DNA of 64,000 bases from Spirochaetota bacterium (lineage in GTDB: Bacteria; Spirochaetota; UBA4802; UBA5550), in the NCBI GenBank assembly GCA_041753395.1, contig JBGSUQ010000025.1, forward strand, positions 268,189 to 332,188, read 5' to 3'. The notes beneath the pieces are model-generated. The model ran no database searches. It was not told where the DNA came from and saw only the letters and a program-made list of their open reading frames with translations. The position numbers were made by a program, and so were the translations under genes. Below, in pieces: positions 10,541 through 48,502 of the stretch. Positions within the stretch are counted from its first letter, which is position 1. Every line of letters starts with the position of its first letter.

Positions 10541-11821
10541 ATGCGATTGATCAATGAGATCACGGTCATCATCAGGAAAAAAAGCTTTCCCAGCTTCATC
10601 GATGAGCTGTACAAGCGTGAGTGCGATCTCCTCGAGCTTCAGCATATCGAGGAGTCGGGTGACGGTTACCTTTACACCCTTCGTATCGCATGCGACAACC
10701 TGAAGCGCTTCGAGGAATTCGTTACCATCATAAGCAACGCCGGCGACAAGTACAAGTTCATATCGGTGAAAAATGTTGTTGAAGATCGCATTGTAGGCGG
10801 TCTCCTCTCCGTATCAGGGAAAATACCGCTTGAAAATATAACTGACCTCAACACCTCTGTGCTGGGCGCGGCAGACCTGATGCTTGAAAAGATAAAAAGC
10901 GAAGACGGGAAGCGCTACACCAGCATTTCGCGGAACGTGGCCCTGGTCGCAGGGATCAGGTCAACGGAAGAAGCGGCCCGTGTAAACCTCCTCAAGGAAT
11001 ATGTCGGCGCCGAGCGCGACGCTGTGATACTCAACAGGTTTTCAGGCCTTAACGGTTTCCCCCTGACGGTACGCTTCGAGCACCCAGAGGACGTCATCCA
11101 GGTTCTCAAGAAGATCGAGCATAATTATTCCGCGCTCCGCGTCACCCGCATCGACGAGGCTTCGATCATGCTCTATGACATGCTGTTTTCTGACCTTACT
11201 GTGCCCATTGCCTCGCTGGAGCATGACGATATTCCCCTGTTCCTGCTGGTCCTCGTCATCAAGATTATGATGAAGTACCGGATCAAGGCGGAAGAAACCA
11301 CGGTCGGCTTCATCGGCATTGACCTGAGCGCCGTGCGCCTCACCCGGGTCCTGGACAAGATCGGCTTCCGGAGGATACTCGGCTTCGATCACAACGAAAA
11401 TTCAATGCTGGCCCTGGAAAACCAGGGAGGCCTTGCGACAACAGCAGAGAATATTTTTGGTAACGCTGACATTACCATTCTTTTGAAAAACAACTTCGAT
11501 ATCGAAGAGTACCGGAAAATACGGCCAGGACAGTTTGTCATATCCTTCATGGGCAAGGATGGGCCCGACCTGGAAGAGATATCGGGTAAAGGCGTGCGTG
11601 AGTTCTTAAAACGGGGGTTGTCTGATCTGGCGGTCCTGTACCCGGGCATGCTGCGCGGGATGATCGACGCAAATGTCGGAAATATCAATGATGCGAGGCT
11701 GGTTGAGTATTCGAAAAAGCTGGTGACCCTGCTGTCAGACGCCTTCGAATTTCCCCATCTCTTTGGAGACATCCATGACAAGGTTTATAAAATTGTCTCC
11801 CAGGACAAGGTTAAGCCTTAA
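10541..11821 (+). CDS. ACT-domain protein with a malic-enzyme-like NAD(P)-binding (Malic_M-like) domain
   Basis: C-terminal region FVISFMGKDGPDLEEI...LAVLYPGMLRGMIDANVGNINDARLVEYSKKL parallels the malic-enzyme NAD domain. N-terminal ~80 aa are ACT-like. Confidence 0.5.
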   Translation: MRLINEITVIIRKKSFPSFIDELYKRECDLLELQHIEESGDGYLYTLRIACDNLKRFEEFVTIISNAGDKYKFISVKNVVEDRIVGGLLSVSGKIPLENITDLNTSVLGAADLMLEKIKSEDGKRYTSISRNVALVAGIRSTEEAARVNLLKEYVGAERDAVILNRFSGLNGFPLTVRFEHPEDVIQVLKKIEHNYSALRVTRIDEASIMLYDMLFSDLTVPIASLEHDDIPLFLLVLVIKIMMKYRIKAEETTVGFIGIDLSAVRLTRVLDKIGFRRILGFDHNENSMLALENQGGLATTAENIFGNADITILLKNNFDIEEYRKIRPGQFVISFMGKDGPDLEEISGKGVREFLKRGLSDLAVLYPGMLRGMIDANVGNINDARLVEYSKKLVTLLSDAFEFPHLFGDIHDKVYKIVSQDKVKP

Positions 11822-41311: not shown

Positions 41312-42415
41312 TCAGGGGCAGATTACGATACCCTTGGCCCAGAGACATTCGCCGCAGGGTGTCTGGTTCCCGTAGCAGTCGGAAGCTTCAACGGTGCGCT
41401 TGTAGCACATGTCGGGCCGGTAACAATACGCGCAGTCCGGGTAATCATAATAGAGGAAATTATTTCTTAATTCCACGAATGTTCTTTTGTTCCACACCTC
41501 CTCCAGCGTGTCGGCCTTTATGTTTCCCAGTATAAACTTCTCGTGCATCCTTTGCATCCCGGAATAAAAGGCCGGATGGGTATAGGCCAGCTCCGGGCAG
41601 GGGGCGATATCTCCTTCGGCAGTGATAAACATGGTTCCCCGTTCCATGAAGGGACATGTCCGGTTGCCGTGCATTTCCTGGTTTGCCACCCTGAGCGGGT
41701 ATTTCTTCATCTCCCGGCGGAGCAGCCTGCGCAGGTCCGTGTTTTTCCCGAATCCGGTATCGTACAGGATCTCCGATGTCATTGACTTCGTGTATGGATA
41801 CAGGTTGGAAACAATGAATTGATTTATGCCGATCGACCGGCCGTATTCGATCGACCCGGGTATGTGTTGATAGTTTACCCTGGTCGCGACTATCTGCATT
41901 CCTATCATCGGGAGGCTGTTTCCAGAGGCGGCTTTTATTCCGGCCAGTGTCTCTATATTGCTTCTAAATATATCGGCCCTGGCACCGCGACGGATATTCA
42001 AATCAGTTCCGAATATATCATCATCCCATGAAACATGCAATTCGTCAAGAGGGAGGCTGACAAGGTATTCAGACATTTCCCTGGTGAGAAAAGAGGCGTT
42101 CGATACAAGTACGATCTTCGTGTCCAGTTTGCGCAATGACTTCAGGTTCTCCCTGATATGGGGGCTGCTGAGTGCCTCGCCGAAGCCCAGGAGTACGATT
42201 CTCTCCGGACTGGGGGCCTCCAGCATCGGCATCAGTTTTCGCATTAGCCGGGGTGTGAAATGGCATTTCCTGAAATCAACTATCGATTGTCTGATACAGC
42301 TCCGGCACGACAGGTTACAATGCGTTGTAAGCTCTATGTATACCTGCCTGATGCAAGGGGATACCGTCTGCGTTTCAGACCTGAAAACGAGGGAAAAATT
42401 TTCTTTTTTGCTCAT
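41312..42415 (-). CDS. radical SAM enzyme with C-terminal SPASM/twitch Cys-rich domain
   Basis: CNLSCRSC is the CxxxCxxC motif. C-terminal CPFM...CPEL...CAYCYRPDMC...CGECLWAKGIVICP. ATGA overlap with arsC (42412-42415). Last gene of the hgc/ars operon. Confidence 0.8.
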   Translation of the reverse strand: MSKKENFSLVFRSETQTVSPCIRQVYIELTTHCNLSCRSCIRQSIVDFRKCHFTPRLMRKLMPMLEAPSPERIVLLGFGEALSSPHIRENLKSLRKLDTKIVLVSNASFLTREMSEYLVSLPLDELHVSWDDDIFGTDLNIRRGARADIFRSNIETLAGIKAASGNSLPMIGMQIVATRVNYQHIPGSIEYGRSIGINQFIVSNLYPYTKSMTSEILYDTGFGKNTDLRRLLRREMKKYPLRVANQEMHGNRTCPFMERGTMFITAEGDIAPCPELAYTHPAFYSGMQRMHEKFILGNIKADTLEEVWNKRTFVELRNNFLYYDYPDCAYCYRPDMCYKRTVEASDCYGNQTPCGECLWAKGIVICP

Positions 42416-42867
42416 GGATTGTTAATGTCAGGATTTATCAGCGATTGCGGGATTGCTTCAATGAATGCGCGTATCTCGTTACGGACCCGACGGTAGTGCG
42501 CCAGCGCCTCATTTTCGCCGGTGGCGTTTTGTGCCAGAGCGGGCGGATCGTCGAAGCCCTTGTGTATAAATTTCGCCTTGCCGCGGAAGAAGGGGCAGGT
42601 TTCGGACACGCCCCCGCACAGGGTGATGACGTAATCGAATTTCAAACCGGCGAATTCATCCACGTGTTTCGAACGCTGGACCGATATGTCGATGCCGATC
42701 TCGGCCATGACAGTGACTGCGCGCGGGTCAAGGCCTTTTGGCTCAGTCCCGGCCGAATGCGCATCAATGAGATCGCTTTTCAGATGCCGGGCCAGTCCCT
42801 CGGCCATTTGGCTCCGGCAGGAGTTCCCGGTGCAAAGGAAGAGTATTTTTATTTTATCGGAAGGCAT
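42412..42867 (-). CDS. arsC: arsenate reductase, thioredoxin-coupled LMW-PTPase type
   Basis: ILFLCTGNSCRSQMAEG...VITLCGGVSETCP holds the three catalytic Cys of Bacillus-type ArsC. Strong full-length similarity. Confidence 0.9.
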   Translation of the reverse strand: MPSDKIKILFLCTGNSCRSQMAEGLARHLKSDLIDAHSAGTEPKGLDPRAVTVMAEIGIDISVQRSKHVDEFAGLKFDYVITLCGGVSETCPFFRGKAKFIHKGFDDPPALAQNATGENEALAHYRRVRNEIRAFIEAIPQSLINPDINNP

Positions 42868-42876
42868 ATAATTCTC

Positions 42877-43557
42877 CTATTTTCCATTCATGTTTTTTTG
42901 TCTGAGCCGTTCCATTAAATCCTTTGCTTTCTGCATGGCGTCCTGCTCGGATTTATCACTGGCGGCAAGCCAGGGCTGTGTTACCTGCCAGGTCAATTTT
43001 CCCGAATAGGGAGGTTCGGGATACGCGCCGGGATCAAGCAGGGTATTCCCCATGAATTCAACCGGATTTTCCTGAAAACACGACCAAACTGCTTTTCGAA
43101 TTATTTCCGGGTCGCCCTGGAACTGAAGGTCGATGAGACTCACCTGCTCCCTGAACCGTTTAATGAATTCGACAGGGATATTGTACAGATAAGGATGAAG
43201 GGCATCAGTGCCGATTATCTTTTTCTTCTCATCCACGCCATTGGCCATGAGGGCCTTCAGGGCGGAGCCGGTCTGGCGACCGTCCGATTCGGGACCGCCG
43301 AGAATCAAATACCTGATGTTGGGATTGGCTACGAAATTGCAGATCATTTTTTCAAAGCCGATGTTAGGGGTCTGCACCGTGCCGGACAGGGCCGCTCCGG
43401 TTTCCGCGCCGGCGCGAACCAGAAGTTCGATTTCGGGAGGAATCTTGTCCTCGTCAGTTTTGAGAATAATTGCCACTGCGACCGGGGAAAAGTCATTTCC
43501 CCGTATGTAGCGTCCCGGTTCGCAGGGGTAATCCGGATGTGGCGGTACTTTCAGCAT
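42877..43557 (-). CDS. MtrA-like protein (homolog of tetrahydromethanopterin S-methyltransferase subunit A, a corrinoid-binding fold)
   Basis: The stretch NPNIRYLILGGPESDGRQTGSALKALMANGVDEKKKIIGTDALHPYLYNIPVEFIKRFREQVSLIDL aligns by eye with archaeal MtrA (NPNIRYLLV..GHITGQS..NGV....I.GA.GAIPYVENL..EAIARFQEQV..VNL). The position of the MtrA His ligand appears to be Arg. Confidence 0.65.
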   Translation of the reverse strand: MLKVPPHPDYPCEPGRYIRGNDFSPVAVAIILKTDEDKIPPEIELLVRAGAETGAALSGTVQTPNIGFEKMICNFVANPNIRYLILGGPESDGRQTGSALKALMANGVDEKKKIIGTDALHPYLYNIPVEFIKRFREQVSLIDLQFQGDPEIIRKAVWSCFQENPVEFMGNTLLDPGAYPEPPYSGKLTWQVTQPWLAASDKSEQDAMQKAKDLMERLRQKNMNGK

Positions 43558-43614
43558 GTTGTAGTGCTCTCTGGTAGTATGATTTTCAAAATCATACTAC
43601 CGTTTCTTCTCCTA

Positions 43615-44655
43615 TTAAAAATACTTTTTTTTGAAAAATAGTGCCACATTTACAAGGCCGATCATGACCGGAACCTCGACAAGCGGTCCGATAACTGCCG
43701 CAAAAGCGGCCCCTGAATTGATGCCGAAAACAGCGACCGCGACCGCTATGGCGAGCTCAAAATTATTGCTCGCCGCCGTGAACGAGAGGGTCGTCGCAAC
43801 CGGGTATCCGGCGCCAATCTTTTTGCTCATGTAGAAACTAACCAGAAACATGACAATAAAGTAGATCAGCAGCGGTATCGCGATTCGAACGACGTCCATC
43901 GGTATTTTTACAATGTACTCACCCTTCAGGCTGAACATGACCAGTATGGTAAAGAGGAGAGCGATGAGCGTAATGGGACTGATTTTCGGAATGAATTTTG
44001 TCTGGTACCATTCCTTGTTTTTCAGCTTGATAAGCGCGAAGCGTGTGATTATCCCCGCAATAAAGGGAATGCCAAGGTAAATAAATACACTTTTTGCGAT
44101 CTGTCCTATGGTGATGTCAACAATGCTTCCGCTGAGACCGAACAGCGGAGGTAGAATGGTGATAAAAAACCACGCATACACACTGAAGAACAGGACCTGG
44201 AAAATGCTGTTGAAGGCCACGAGCCCGGCAGCGTATTCAGCGTCACCCCTGGCAAGGTCGTTCCACACTATTACCATGGCAATGCAGCGCGCCAGGCCAA
44301 TCATGATGAGACCGACCATGTACTCCGGATAACCGCTCAGGAATGCAAGGGCAAGAAAAAACATCAACACTGGTCCGATGATCCAGTTCTGTACGAGCGA
44401 AAGACCGAGCACTTTCCAGTTTTTGAATACATCGCCCAGCTCCTCGTATTTGACTTTCGCCAGTGGAGGGTACATCATGAGTATAAGACCAATCGCGATG
44501 GGGATGTTCGTGGTTCCTGTCTGGAATTGGCTCCAGAATGCCGCTGTCGAGGGGACAAAATATCCCAGGCCAACGCCGATGGCCATAGCGGCGAAGATCC
44601 ATAGGGTTAAATAGCGGTCGACAAAAGAAAGTTTTTTTGTTATTCCTTCAGTCAT
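43615..44655 (-). CDS. arsB: arsenite efflux transporter, ACR3 family
   Basis: [33 protein letters not shown] is the ACR3 N-terminus. 10 TM helices. AGGGAGAA SD. The ORF-track frame extends to 44757 but ATG 44655 is the likely start. Confidence 0.85.
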
Positions 44656-44669
44656 TATCGTTCTCCCTG

Positions 44670-45368
44670 TTACATTAATTGTATCCTGAAAATATAGAGA
44701 ATGCAGAAATATATGCCAATCATGATGAATAAAATACCGGTGATGCGGCGTCCCCACAATTCAAGCTTCGTGACCGCGTTAAATACGCCTGATAGGTGCC
44801 GGGCGCCAAAGGCTGCCAGGAGCGCGAAGGCCATTACCGGGAGCGCCGTGCCGGCTCCGTAGAGGGCCGGCATGAGCAGGGCCGATTGGTGCCGCACCGC
44901 CAGGGGAATGAGGCTGCCGAAAAAGAGCGCAGCAGATACAGGGCAAAAGGCCAGAGCGAAAACAATTCCCATGACGAACGAAGCAGCAAATATGTTTTTT
45001 TCGGCAAGTCGCTGAAGTGTTGACGTGTCGGTCCCGCTGCCGGCGGGGAGATGTATCAGCTCCAGGAGGAACATACCGGCAACGATGAGAACCGGGCCCA
45101 GGGCTCTGTTCATGTAGCGCTGCAAAAAATCCGACACTGTGGGGATTGACAGAAGGCTTGCGACTAACAGTGCCGCAAGCGCAGTGTAGGCGGTCACCCT
45201 TCCCAGCAGATATAATGCTCCGGTGATAACTACCTTTTTTGTTTCAGCCGCGTTTTTTCCGATATATGACACAGCCGCGATGTTGGTCGCCAGGGGGCAG
45301 GGACTGATGGAGGTGAGAATGCCCAGCCAGATGGCGGCGATGATGCCGGTAGTCAGTTCTCCGTTCAT
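44670..45368 (-). CDS. ccdA: CcdA/DsbD-family transmembrane thiol-disulfide electron transporter
   Basis: [21 protein letters not shown] is the conserved SPCPL motif. ~6 TM helices. ATGA overlap with the upstream gene. Confidence 0.8.
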
Positions 45369-45871
45369 ATGGTTTTCAAATATAATGTTATTTCGTTTTT
45401 GATATAACCGGTGAAAGCCGTTTCGTCCCGGACCAGCTCCCATATCCGGTCGAGGTTTTTCCACCGTACCTGCTTTCCCTTCACGGTATCGACAATTACC
45501 ACGGACTTGGTGAAAAGCTTGAAGTCATCGGCGAAGTGCCTGTTTTCCGGAAATTCAATATTGACCGGCTTCCATGCGATCCGTTGTGTCGCCAATTCCC
45601 TGGAAAAAAAGTTCTTAACGGTTGATTCGGTGAGAGACTCGATCTTCCGGCAGGTGGGGCACCGGAAGGTCGTGTGGAAATAGTAGACCGTCAAGGCACG
45701 CTCCTTTACGGGGATGCTGGTATCCGGCGCGTCCTTATCACTTTTTTGCTGTGTATCAGACGCGGTAATTTCGTCCTTTGCCGGCTTCCGGACTTCCGTT
45801 GCGATCAGGTACATTACGCTGGCCGCGACAAAAATAGACAAAACAATGGTGGCAATTCTTCGTATCTTCAT
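45365..45871 (-). CDS. membrane-anchored thioredoxin-fold protein with CPTC motif (paralog A; uncharacterised family)
   Basis: N-terminal TM helix and a charged linker. The domain VYYFHTTFRCPTCRKIE...WKPVNIEFPENRHFADDFKLFTKSVVIVDT...VRWKNLD...FTGYIKNEI is paralogous to 47921..48502. Confidence 0.6.
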   Translation of the reverse strand: MKIRRIATIVLSIFVAASVMYLIATEVRKPAKDEITASDTQQKSDKDAPDTSIPVKERALTVYYFHTTFRCPTCRKIESLTESTVKNFFSRELATQRIAWKPVNIEFPENRHFADDFKLFTKSVVIVDTVKGKQVRWKNLDRIWELVRDETAFTGYIKNEITLYLKTI

Positions 45872-45901
45872 CAGGTTTTCCTCTATAATAATAGTATCGT
45901 A

Positions 45902-46309
45902 TCAGCAAATTCCGCCGCAGGAACAGCCTGAAGATTTTACTCCGGACGCTGTCGGTTCATTCCTCATAATACGGTCGCTTAGGGAATTAATGATTTCTTC
46001 TGAAGGCAGCGTCTTCCCTTTCTCAATGCCGAAATCGGTCAGGATATAGGAAAGGGGCGTAACGCCGATGCGCTCCAGGGTCTTCTTTGCACATTGGACG
46101 GGGCACCCGTCTATGGTGATATTTACATCAGCCCCTTTTGCCGATTCGACGAACCCGGAAAGGTCCGCCCCGATACCGGCGAGGCAGGTCATGCGCGCGA
46201 ATGCCCGGTCGCGGAGTTTCCGCGACACACCATCAGCGATCTGACCCACGTCGGCAGCGCCGGAACATGAATATAAGAGTTTAACTCCTCCAGTGCAGCA
46301 ATCAGCCAT
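45902..46309 (-). CDS. DGC-domain Cys-rich protein (putative zinc-binding)
   Basis: ITIDGCPVQC is the DGC signature. N-terminal CC, C-terminal CSCGGIC. 135 aa. Confidence 0.65.
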   Translation of the reverse strand: MADCCTGGVKLLYSCSGAADVGQIADGVSRKLRDRAFARMTCLAGIGADLSGFVESAKGADVNITIDGCPVQCAKKTLERIGVTPLSYILTDFGIEKGKTLPSEEIINSLSDRIMRNEPTASGVKSSGCSCGGIC

Positions 46310-46320
46310 GACATTTGCTC

Positions 46321-46551
46321 CTATGATAATAATTTTTTAATCTCATCCAGGGACGGTATTTTTCCGGCCACCTTGACGATGCCGTCCTTCACCAGGGCAG
46401 GCGTCATCATGACGCCGTAGTTGGTGATGGCGTTGATGTCCTTTACGTGATTGATCTGTGCGTCAAGGCCCATCTCCTTCACGGCCTGCCGTGTCAGTTC
46501 TTCAAGCTTCTGGCATTTGAAACAGCCGGTACCCAGTATTTCTAAAAGCAT
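46321..46551 (-). CDS. small thioredoxin-family protein (redox-active disulfide protein 2 / Thioredoxin_3 type)
   Basis: MLLEILGTGCFKCQKLEE...YGVMMTPALVKDGIVKVAGKIPSLDEIKKLL is the characteristic GTGC-K-C family. GGAGAT SD. It sits next to the DUF318 permease, its usual partner. Confidence 0.8.
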   Translation of the reverse strand: MLLEILGTGCFKCQKLEELTRQAVKEMGLDAQINHVKDINAITNYGVMMTPALVKDGIVKVAGKIPSLDEIKKLLS

Positions 46552-46573
46552 GATCAATCTCCTTGTTAAGTTC

Positions 46574-47872
46574 TTAAAATAGAGCTCCAAAAATCATACC
46601 TGATATAGTTGACATAATAACCACGAGGGAGCAGTATACTATGGTCTTTTGTGTACCCAGGTAGCTGCGGATCACCAGCATGCTTGGCAGCGAGAGGGCC
46701 GGACCTGCAAGAAGCAGCGCCAGCGCCGGGCCCTTACCCATGCCGCTGCCGATAAGGCCCTGCACAATGGGGACCTCGGTAAGGGTGGCGAAGTACATGA
46801 AGGCGCCCACTATGGCGGCAAAGAAATTCGCCCGGAGGGAGTTGCCGCCCACCGCTGTCTGTACCCAATCTGACGGAATGATACCCTCATGGCCCGGTCT
46901 TCCCAGGAGGAACCCGGATACCAGCACGCCTACCAGGAGGAGCGGCGTAATCTGCTTGGCAAAGTCCCATGTCGCGGTGAACCATGTGCCGGATTCGCCC
47001 TTATCGGGACCGGTGATTATGGCGAGGCCAATCGCTCCGGCAGCGAAAGGGATTATGGGATACTCGATGAAGAAAATACCAAGGATGATGACAGCCAGCC
47101 CAACCAGTGCGACTTTCCACCATTTTAATTCAAACCAGAAAACCAGGACAATGGCAAACACCGCTGCCGACACCGCGGTTATTATCCATTTGTAGGTGAA
47201 TATAAAATAGAAGATTCCGTCTGCCTCATCCGGCCTGCCCCAGTTGGCGAAAACAAGAATGGCCACCATTGAGGCGAAATAGACCGCGTCTTTCCAGAGG
47301 GGCCTCTTTGTTTCCGGCACCGGCATGTTCATGGCCGCGTTGACCTTGGCTATTTCCTCCTTACGGTAGATGAAGTGCATGATGCCGCCTATGATCACGC
47401 TGAAGGAAACAGCGCCGACGGCCCGGGCGATACCGATATCGGCCCCCAGAATCCGCGCCGTTAGTATGATCGCGAGGACATTGATGGCCGGTCCTGAGTA
47501 GAGGAAGGCGATAGCCGGTCCCAGGCCCGCGCCCATGCGGTAGATGCCGGAGAAGAGGGGAAGCACCGTACAGGAGCAGACCGCCAGGACAGACCCTGAA
47601 ACCGAACCCACACCATAGGCGAGGGCTTTGTTGGCCGTGGGTCCCAGATATTTCATGACCGATTCCTGCCGGACAAATGTCCCTATGGCCCCGGCGATAA
47701 AGAAGGCCGGGATGAGGCAGAGGACCACGTGCTCCCGGGCGTACCACTGGGCGAGGCGCAGGGCTTCAAACACAGCGTTGTCGAATCTCGATGTGCCCAC
47801 GGGCATGTAATAGAGCGCCAGGAAAAATCCGGCGATCCACAGCAAAGGTTTCCATTCGTTTTTCCAGTTCAT
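46574..47872 (-). CDS. DUF318/COG0701 permease (ArsP-like, CSC motif)
   Basis: ~10-12 TM helices with an intramembrane VLAVCSCTVLP (compare the ArsP TPFcSCS motif). Paired with the Thioredoxin_3 protein. Confidence 0.75.
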   Translation of the reverse strand: MNWKNEWKPLLWIAGFFLALYYMPVGTSRFDNAVFEALRLAQWYAREHVVLCLIPAFFIAGAIGTFVRQESVMKYLGPTANKALAYGVGSVSGSVLAVCSCTVLPLFSGIYRMGAGLGPAIAFLYSGPAINVLAIILTARILGADIGIARAVGAVSFSVIIGGIMHFIYRKEEIAKVNAAMNMPVPETKRPLWKDAVYFASMVAILVFANWGRPDEADGIFYFIFTYKWIITAVSAAVFAIVLVFWFELKWWKVALVGLAVIILGIFFIEYPIIPFAAGAIGLAIITGPDKGESGTWFTATWDFAKQITPLLLVGVLVSGFLLGRPGHEGIIPSDWVQTAVGGNSLRANFFAAIVGAFMYFATLTEVPIVQGLIGSGMGKGPALALLLAGPALSLPSMLVIRSYLGTQKTIVYCSLVVIMSTISGMIFGALF

Positions 47873-47920: not shown

Positions 47921-48502
47921 TCAGAGATATGACGCAACTTCTGCCTGAATATACTTCATAAACCCGGCTCTGTCGCCGGCCAGGTTCTCAGCATTGTCGA
48001 GGACCTTCCACTGGATTTTCCTGTTTACCGCCGGAGTAACGATGACGATGGACCTTTTTTTTAGTTTAAAATCATCGGCAAAGTGTTTGTTCCAGGGCTC
48101 ATCCATGTTCACGGATCTCCAGATCAGCTTTCCAGATGCCATCTGGTTTCTGAAACAGGTGTAGAGCGATTGTATCGTGAGACGCTCGAATCTGCGGCAT
48201 GCGGCGTCACGGTCGGTATAATGAAAATAATAGACGATTGATTTGAGATATTCTTTCTGGATTGTTTGCCGGGAATTATCCCGTTTCTCCCCCCTGTCCG
48301 TTTTGGCTTTTTTTTCATCGGCCCCGGTTTTGGGAGGGGAAGATTTTTCATTCCTTGTCTCATCCATCTGCGCTGATTTCTGAGCCGGGGAAGTTTCTTT
48401 TTCCGGCAAGCCCACCCGGCCCATCAGGAAATACAGGGAACCGACGATGATGCAGAGGAGCAGAATGATAATTATTATATTTCTTTTTTTTGTGGTGCTC
48501 AA
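47921..48502 (-). CDS. membrane-anchored thioredoxin-fold-like protein lacking the first active-site Cys (paralog B)
   Basis: IVYYFHYTDRDAACRRFE...WRSVNMDEPWNKHFADDFKLKKRSIVIVTP...IQWKVLD...FMKYIQAEV is paralogous to 45365..45871. Confidence 0.6.
   Translation of the reverse strand: MSTTKKRNIIIIILLLCIIVGSLYFLMGRVGLPEKETSPAQKSAQMDETRNEKSSPPKTGADEKKAKTDRGEKRDNSRQTIQKEYLKSIVYYFHYTDRDAACRRFERLTIQSLYTCFRNQMASGKLIWRSVNMDEPWNKHFADDFKLKKRSIVIVTPAVNRKIQWKVLDNAENLAGDRAGFMKYIQAEVASYL

Follow-up and report, generated by a model that had tools for sequence, protein, structure and literature searches.

A soluble MtrA-type protein family that recurs in arsenic-resistance islands, with a private Arg at the cobalt-ligand position of one Spirochaetota member

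The subject of this study is an MtrA-like gene in a 64-kb stretch of DNA from a Spirochaetota bacterium (positions 268,189 to 332,188 of contig JBGSUQ010000025.1, assembly GCA_041753395.1), hereafter the window. The best explanation of this gene, to which we assign a probability of about 0.6, is that it encodes a soluble MtrA-type corrinoid protein serving arsenic islands, that its family binds cobalt through a His, and that the Arg present at the ligand position in the window copy (Arg94) is a private variant. An earlier note on this DNA had taken the Arg as a sign that the protein binds cobamide His-off or has another role, and had proposed that it is either a methyl donor or shuttle for HgcA or part of an arsenic methylation route that does not depend on ArsM.

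The window gene encodes a soluble member of the MtrA fold family

42877..43557, minus strand: gene for an MtrA-like soluble corrinoid protein of the NF002126 family, 226 amino acids, intact open reading frame (ORF); evidence from the ORF list, profile scans, a PDB search and an AlphaFold2 (AF2) model

The ORF starts with ATG, and the N-terminal MLKV that follows from this start is common to all homologues. Profile scans place the protein in the MtrA family, PF04208 of Pfam matching it with an E value of 2.5e-35 (122 bits versus a cutoff of 25) and the NCBIfam subfamily model NF002126 covering residues 2-194 with 188 bits (cutoff 161). With TIGR01111, the equivalog model for the true membrane MtrA, the protein reaches 116 bits, far under the cutoff of 249. 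The homology to MtrA claimed in the earlier note is therefore borne out by scores above the PF04208 and NF002126 cutoffs. When the PDB was searched with phmmer, the protein matched 5LAA, the cytoplasmic MtrA of M. fervidus with cobalamin (E 3.4e-31), and 8Q3V_A, the MtrA of M. marburgensis (E 1e-28). The structural comparison that had been suggested gives the same answer: an AF2 model derived from 121 sequences of the family (pLDDT 84.6) adopts the MtrA-type Rossmann-like fold, with a target-normalised TM of 0.93 and an rmsd of 2.8 Å when compared with 5LAA_B (E 1.6e-16).

The Rossmann-like domain corresponds approximately to residues 1-170. It is followed by a conserved C-terminal extension with the motif DPGAYPEPP..TWQVTQPW (TWxVTQPW in the family), and then by a hydrophilic helix formed by residues 202-224, KSEQDAMQKAKDLMERLRQKNMNGK. 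No transmembrane helix was found in the protein, nor the C-terminal transmembrane anchor of the MtrA-H subunit, and surveys of neighbouring genes found no mtr genes beside the window gene or in related loci. The window protein belongs to the MtrA fold family and to NF002126, without being one of the subunits of an Mtr complex. Judged from its sequences, NF002126 appears to be a strongly conserved and horizontally spread family of soluble MtrA-type proteins that are predicted to bind a corrinoid.

Arsenic-resistance genes are the recurrent neighbours of the family

We scanned one genome per GTDB species and retained the best 80 loci, whose proteins are 65-91% identical. These loci come from Spirochaetota, Desulfobacterota, Chloroflexota, Actinomycetota, Nitrospirota, Nitrospinaceae and methanogen metagenome-assembled genomes (MAGs). 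All of these best 80 species-level genomes are MAGs or single-amplified genomes, with no cultured isolate among them, which may explain why the family has gone unstudied. A search of a plasmid collection returned only distant paralogues, "DUF4346" proteins of 38% identity encoded on Planococcus plasmids, in a gene context that gives no information.

We then clustered into families all the ORFs found up to 5 kb from the MtrA-like gene. The only neighbours that recur across phyla are ars-related: ACR3 (23 loci), ArsR-type proteins (20), ArsP (16) and ArsG (11), with DGC, ArsC, ArsF, ArsA and thioredoxins as further members of this group. When the 142 immediate neighbours were scanned with Pfam and NCBIfam, ACR3 proved the commonest. 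Of the 81 species-level loci, 30, which come from at least five phyla, have one or more ars-specific genes within 5 kb, and 19 have two or more; among the loci with at least 3 kb of sequence on both sides, 20 of 46 have one or more. By comparison, a random 10-kb window should hold an ars gene in roughly 1% of cases, as estimated from genome size and ars copy number. The association extends to minimal units composed of arsR and the MtrA-like gene (L062, L069 and L082). When the loci are divided according to residue 64, discussed below, ars linkage is seen in 11/16 with Pro and 15/56 with Glu. The NF002126 family is an accessory gene of arsenic-resistance islands in the window organism and in many other anaerobes.

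An ArsC–MtrA-like fusion (P0144) was also examined as possible evidence of linkage; it looks like a frameshifted gene call and was counted as adjacency only.

An arsenic-related role, possibly in methyl transfer, is made more plausible by this restriction of the recurrent neighbours to ars genes. The idea of a simple replacement for ArsM does not stand, since ArsM-like genes directly adjoin the MtrA-like gene in three loci: L015 (1696-2415), L018 (4766-5485) and L075 (approximately 10867-11412). The two genes are thus not mutually exclusive. These three loci are otherwise without ars genes. The ArsM-like ORFs of L015 and L018 match positions 45-267 only of the ArsM model, which likely reflects a missed N-terminus and possibly selenocysteine read-through.

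Arg94 is a private, single-transition variant

43276..43278, minus strand: codon CGC of Arg94 at the cobalt-ligand position, from alignment and codon comparison; CAC or CAT in relatives

In the alignment with 8Q3V_A, which is locally ungapped, the window segment GGPESDGRQTGSA stands opposite CGSEVQGHITGQS, and residue counting places Arg94 opposite His84, the lower axial cobalt ligand of MtrA (PMC4915002). The by-eye claim that an Arg occupies the ligand position is therefore correct. A shifted alignment that would bring a His into register was rejected, since there is no His in the loop, GGPESDGRQTGSALKAL, and no gap in that part of the alignment. Among conserved His residues, H7 and H121 come closest; H121 pairs with Ile111 of the relay described below and not with the ligand.

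The Arg is confined to the window sequence. In a non-redundant set of 193 family sequences, composed of database hits and 77 genes from GTDB species genomes, the ligand column reads His in 192 and Arg in one, the window protein. All 120 nearest database homologues (68-91% identity) have the His, in the context GPESxGH, as do the 7 further proteins that share a 90% cluster with the window protein. This rules out the Arg as a trait of the family. The exact Arg-bearing protein occurs once in a collection of 15 billion proteins, on one NCBI contig. At the nucleotide level, the 21-mer around the codon is the same as in the nearest relative (L005) except for CGC in place of CAC, i.e., a single A-to-G transition; the variant base is at position 43277, a G on the minus strand and a C on the plus strand.

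We also surveyed the wider MtrA superfamily, grouped into 720 clusters at 50% identity. Of the 110 representatives aligned, 96 have His in the ligand column, and Tyr, Phe, Arg or Met are found in more distant clusters only. This agrees with Wagner et al., who described the His as "mostly conserved" outside methanogens (PMC4915002).

At the near-invariant columns of the 193-sequence set, R94 is the sole private deviation of the window protein. When seven neighbouring genes were compared with their relatives in the same way, arsC showed one private change at such columns and the other six none. Since R94 stands alone, gene decay is ruled out, and since the neighbours show no excess, a generally error-ridden assembly is not supported. 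Arg94 is a private variant that arose by a single transition from CAC to CGC and is unique to the window sequence, and the window copy is either a strain-specific allele or the product of a base-call error. As the change from His to Arg removes the lower axial ligand, an allele would be impaired or His-off.

A local sequencing or assembly error, in an organism that encodes His (CAC) and has a normal His-on protein, is a possibility that we take seriously, while holding it well short of even odds. It would account for a single transition within an otherwise matching 21-mer, for the presence of the Arg on one contig only, and for a gene that is otherwise perfectly conserved; against it, the seven neighbouring genes, with at most one private change each, do not depict an error-prone assembly. 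The substitution with which the earlier note was headed is probably trivial.

The cobalamin pocket is conserved, with family-specific residues around the ligand

The contacts of the nucleotide tail and corrin of cobalamin in 5LAA have been described (PMC4915002, section 6). By alignment, they correspond to the following residues of the window protein:

Tyr18 of 5LAA: Y17
Thr53 of 5LAA: T63
Asn55 of 5LAA: N65
Gly57 of 5LAA: G67
Val61 of 5LAA: M71
Asn64 of 5LAA: N74

Each of these six residues is invariant or near-invariant across the family. Together with the conserved His, they indicate that the family very probably consists of base-off/His-on corrinoid proteins, an assignment made from sequence conservation. 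The proposal that this protein type is His-off or does not bind a corrinoid is not supported, given the 192 relatives that keep the His and the conservation of the residues that bind the cobalamin tail.

Two Cys residues are near-invariant as well (190/193 each): Cys73, which is specific to the family and is Ala in archaeal MtrA, and Cys160. They raise the question of whether the protein acts without methyl transfer, as an As(III) chaperone using both thiols, or as a corrinoid-based reductase of organoarsenicals in concert with ArsEFG-like and thioredoxin genes. The frequency of thioredoxin-like, DGC, ArsF and ArsG genes among the neighbours would suit this explanation, as would the existence of a relative fused to a 2x[4Fe-4S] ferredoxin (P0130). 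We nevertheless consider it unlikely: a pure thiol chaperone would have no need of the full set of cobalamin contacts and the His ligand, Cys160 is also common in canonical MtrA, and there are only two conserved Cys.

The second sphere of the cobalt ligand differs from that of MtrA. In MtrA, a hydrogen-bond relay connects His84, Glu54 and Ile111. The Glu54 column of the family reads Glu in 141 sequences, Pro in 51 and Val in one, and the window protein has Pro (Pro64) in place of the Glu. At Ile111, 191 of the 193 members have a His (His121), where other MtrA clades have I, T, R or M. An invariant His121, with Pro for Glu54 in a quarter of the family, suggests that the second sphere around the ligand has been rewired.

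His121 also enters into the possibility that Arg94 is a real allele working with His-off cobamide, as in CFeSP, which has no protein ligand, with His121 perhaps substituting for the lost ligand. The absence of decay in the rest of the protein, the intact tail-binding pocket, the family-specific conservation of His121 and the Tyr, Phe, Arg or Met found in distant superfamily clusters all speak for such an allele. The near-universal His points to strong selection for that residue, and no second, independent Arg has been found within the family; we consider a functional His-off allele unlikely. Arg94 is not evidence for a new mode of cofactor binding, and a substitution seen in a single genome, at a single base, should not be taken as one.

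Linkage to hgcAB is confined to one Spirochaetota island type

In the window, hgcA and hgcB head the same co-directional cluster as the MtrA-like gene, which the earlier note had placed in one operon with HgcA. Across the 81 loci, hgcA and hgcB lie within 10 kb of the MtrA-like gene in only three (L007, L009 and L010), which are all from Spirochaetota and in which the pair is always at the head of the same island. Other Spirochaetota islands contain the MtrA-like gene and not hgcAB, and no hgcAB is present upstream of the orthologous islands in L001, L005 and L008. Linkage to hgcAB is thus confined to one type of Spirochaetota island. Proximity of hgcAB to ars genes has already been documented (PMC7438021, Fig. 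6; PMC10349881). Since hgcAB are found near ars genes generally and their co-occurrence with the MtrA-like gene is rare, the link between the MtrA-like protein and HgcA is indirect, via the ars island.

These results argue against a methyl shuttle for HgcA and for an arsenic-related role. The proposal that the protein type exchanged its His for Arg, became His-off or took another role, and serves HgcA as methyl donor or shuttle could appeal to the alignment of Arg94 with His84 and to the same order of hgcAB, ars genes and MtrA-like gene in L007, L009 and L010, but it is already largely refuted by the ligand column, with a His in those same three loci, and by the co-occurrence counts, and with ars genes standing between hgcB and the MtrA-like gene we regard it as very improbable.

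The arsenic island of the window

The MtrA-like gene is part of a cluster of thirteen co-directional and tightly spaced genes. It lies between ACR3 and arsC, 57 nt downstream of the former and 9 nt upstream of the latter, a position already recognized in the earlier note and borne out by profile scans of the flanking genes. The other twelve genes, in their order in the cluster, are listed below.

49230-50429, minus strand: hgcA, heading the cluster (NF040863, 403 bits)
48922-49245, minus strand: hgcB, heading the cluster together with hgcA (48922..50429; NF040864, 120 bits)
48566-48910, minus strand: arsR (profile scans)
47921-48502, minus strand: second ArsF-family protein, adjoining arsR; an ArsF paralogue, 41% identity (profile scans)
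46574-47872, minus strand: ArsP_1-family permease (profile scans)
46321-46590, minus strand: MTH895/ArsE-type thioredoxin-like protein (profile scans)
45902-46309, minus strand: DGC-domain protein (profile scans)
45365-45871, minus strand: ArsF-family protein (profile scans)
44670-45464, minus strand: ArsG-family permease (NF040495, 274 bits)
43615..44757, minus strand: ACR3 arsenite efflux permease (TIGR00832, 455 bits)
42412..42867, minus strand: arsC, thioredoxin-type low-molecular-weight phosphatase (LMWP) arsenate reductase (profile scans)
41312..42415, minus strand: radical S-adenosylmethionine (SAM)/SPASM protein, the last gene of the cluster, its start overlapping the arsC stop (ATGA)

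The listed ACR3 ORF is probably over-extended at its 5' end, because the family match begins at residue 43. The DGC, ArsF and ArsG genes (44670..46309) make up an ArsEFG-like module for aromatic arsenicals, which suggests, from gene content, that the island also handles aromatic organoarsenicals. No ArsM-like ORF was found by tblastn (E≤1e-3) anywhere in the 64 kb, which extends the earlier observation that the cluster has none. A syntenic island with the same gene order is found in a Spirochaetota MAG (L009), at 79-85% nucleotide identity and with the His at the ligand position. Promoter and terminator consensus scans across the cluster gave background levels only, so that the operon boundaries are deduced from gene spacing alone.

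The gap between ACR3 and the MtrA-like gene contains one further element.

43572..43602, no strand assigned: perfect palindrome with 14-bp arms, GGTAGTATGATTTT GAA AAAATCATACTACC, within the 57 nt that separate ACR3 from the MtrA-like gene

Folded as RNA, this palindrome gives a hairpin of -19.7 kcal/mol (z -4.8) that lacks a U tail; it occurs only once in the window. In L001 and L010, the same position is occupied by another hairpin, rich in GC, so that structure rather than sequence may be conserved here.

Two further genes of the cluster deserve comment. The radical SAM/SPASM protein resembles maturases of TIGR04317 (tungsten-cofactor) and TIGR04311 ("metalloenzyme maturase"), while scoring under both cutoffs, and similar genes are found near the MtrA-like gene in L005, L006, L007, L009, L073, L074 and L084. 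The HgcA ORF begins with TTG and has an N-terminal extension of approximately 66 residues before the family match, with a Cys-Cys motif (..GQNCCAPP..). A CU/CC motif in HgcA has been described by Haft (bioRxiv 10.1101/2022.07.06.499078), Cys-Cys being its non-selenocysteine form.

Proposed role

Our best guess, by analogy, is that the family provides a soluble, corrinoid-based methyl carrier whose substrates are arsenic species. In the mechanism that we propose, the protein would bind cobamide base-off/His-on and would cycle between Co(I) and CH3-Co(III), as every characterised MtrA and the corrinoid methyl carriers do. The methyl group would be passed to As(III), or taken from methylarsenicals, and the ArsP-family or ACR3 permeases encoded alongside would export the product. 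The methyl donor and reductive activation would presumably be supplied from elsewhere in the genome. The ferredoxin fusion P0130 fits a corrinoid that is activated by reduction.

Other fusions of the MtrA domain are present among the superfamily representatives. One type joins it to TusA and a Cys-rich C-terminal region of approximately 200 amino acids, and another to thymidylate-synthase-like domains, the latter being annotated "DUF4346" on the Planococcus plasmids. Together with the ferredoxin type, the fusion-bearing representatives are P0130, P0124/P0127/P0134 and P0150/P0167/P0179/P0183/P0190. None of these types appears to have been characterised.

Several findings weigh against the proposal that the family is a His-on corrinoid protein of arsenic islands. 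More than half of the loci have no ars gene nearby, and the largest Desulfobacterota subclade is ars-linked in 4 of 35 loci only. In the neighbour surveys, neither a corrinoid activase nor a cognate methyltransferase of the MtrH, MtaB or MtaA type recurs beside the gene. Finally, the window's clade has Pro instead of Glu54, a member of the His-Glu relay.

A more specific version of this proposal gives NF002126 a dedicated function in the arsenic metabolism of anaerobes, as a corrinoid carrier of methyl groups that serves a cobamide-dependent, SAM-independent methylation of As(III) or accepts methyl groups in O2-independent demethylation of methylarsenicals. We offer it as a tentative idea, with the odds clearly against it. 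If true, it would account for the presence of the gene, together with ArsP and ACR3, on ars islands of both bacterial and archaeal phyla.

Comparison with known systems

The closest characterised relative is the cytoplasmic MtrA described in 2016 (PMC4915002), with which the window protein shares its fold and 37-40% identity over approximately 165 residues. The tail-pocket residues are the same, as is the His84 ligand at the level of the family, and both proteins are soluble and without a transmembrane helix. However, the window family differs from archaeal MtrA, the cytoplasmic form included, by a 10-residue insertion (residues 42-51) and by the conserved C-terminal extension of approximately 55 residues. 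It further differs from MtrA in its specific Cys73 and His121, in the Pro that replaces Glu54 in the window clade, and, in the window copy, in the Arg at the ligand position. In contrast to MtrA genes in methanogenesis operons, the NF002126 gene is found in bacterial ars islands, with no mtrB-H nearby.

Like HgcA and CFeSP-type proteins, the MtrA-like protein is a putative corrinoid methyl carrier of an anaerobe, and its gene cluster is related to metals or metalloids; the pairing of HgcA with HgcB has a parallel in the ferredoxin fusion of some MtrA-like relatives (P0130). HgcA, a member of the CFeSP family, has a Cys as lower ligand; its fold and mode of cobalamin binding are unrelated to those of the MtrA-like family, which is small, soluble, predicted to be His-on and, as seen above, rarely linked to it. 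ArsM, the SAM-dependent arsenite methyltransferase, would be a functional analogue if the MtrA-like family methylates As(III), and both are encoded in ars clusters with ArsP or ACR3, but the two have no sequence or fold relationship and the cofactor would be a corrinoid instead of SAM. Finally, MtaC, MttC and similar small methyl carriers, which act with MT1/MT2 partners and RamA-type activases, go through the same Co(I) to CH3-Co(III) cycle that we propose here, whereas their fold family and cobalamin site are different and no methyltransferase or activase genes are conserved beside the MtrA-like gene.

Significance

A soluble MtrA-type protein that is routinely auto-annotated as "tetrahydromethanopterin S-methyltransferase subunit A" recurs in ars islands of uncultured anaerobes, among them Spirochaetota, Desulfobacterota, Chloroflexota, Actinomycetota and methanogens. 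The proteins are 65-91% identical across phyla, as is typical of resistance functions that are mobile. Cobalamin-dependent arsenic methylation is chemistry that has been known since early work on methanogens. In our literature search, we found no paper linking MtrA homologues with hgcA/hgcAB, acr3 or arsenic resistance, and the family-level association with ars genes is a new and testable lead. The idea that the genes adjacent to hgcAB in the window island point to the methyl donor of HgcA is weakened.

Methylotrophic corrinoid methyltransferase systems have been suspected in the anaerobic demethylation of methylarsenicals (PMC10579292; bioRxiv 10.64898/2026.08.27.747368), the mechanism of which has been described as unclear (PMC10579292). 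If the tentative idea of a dedicated carrier is true, a role in demethylation would make the family the missing anaerobic counterpart of ArsI/ArsH. And if the family handles methyl-arsenic chemistry, its gene would join the markers of arsenic speciation in sediments and paddy soils.

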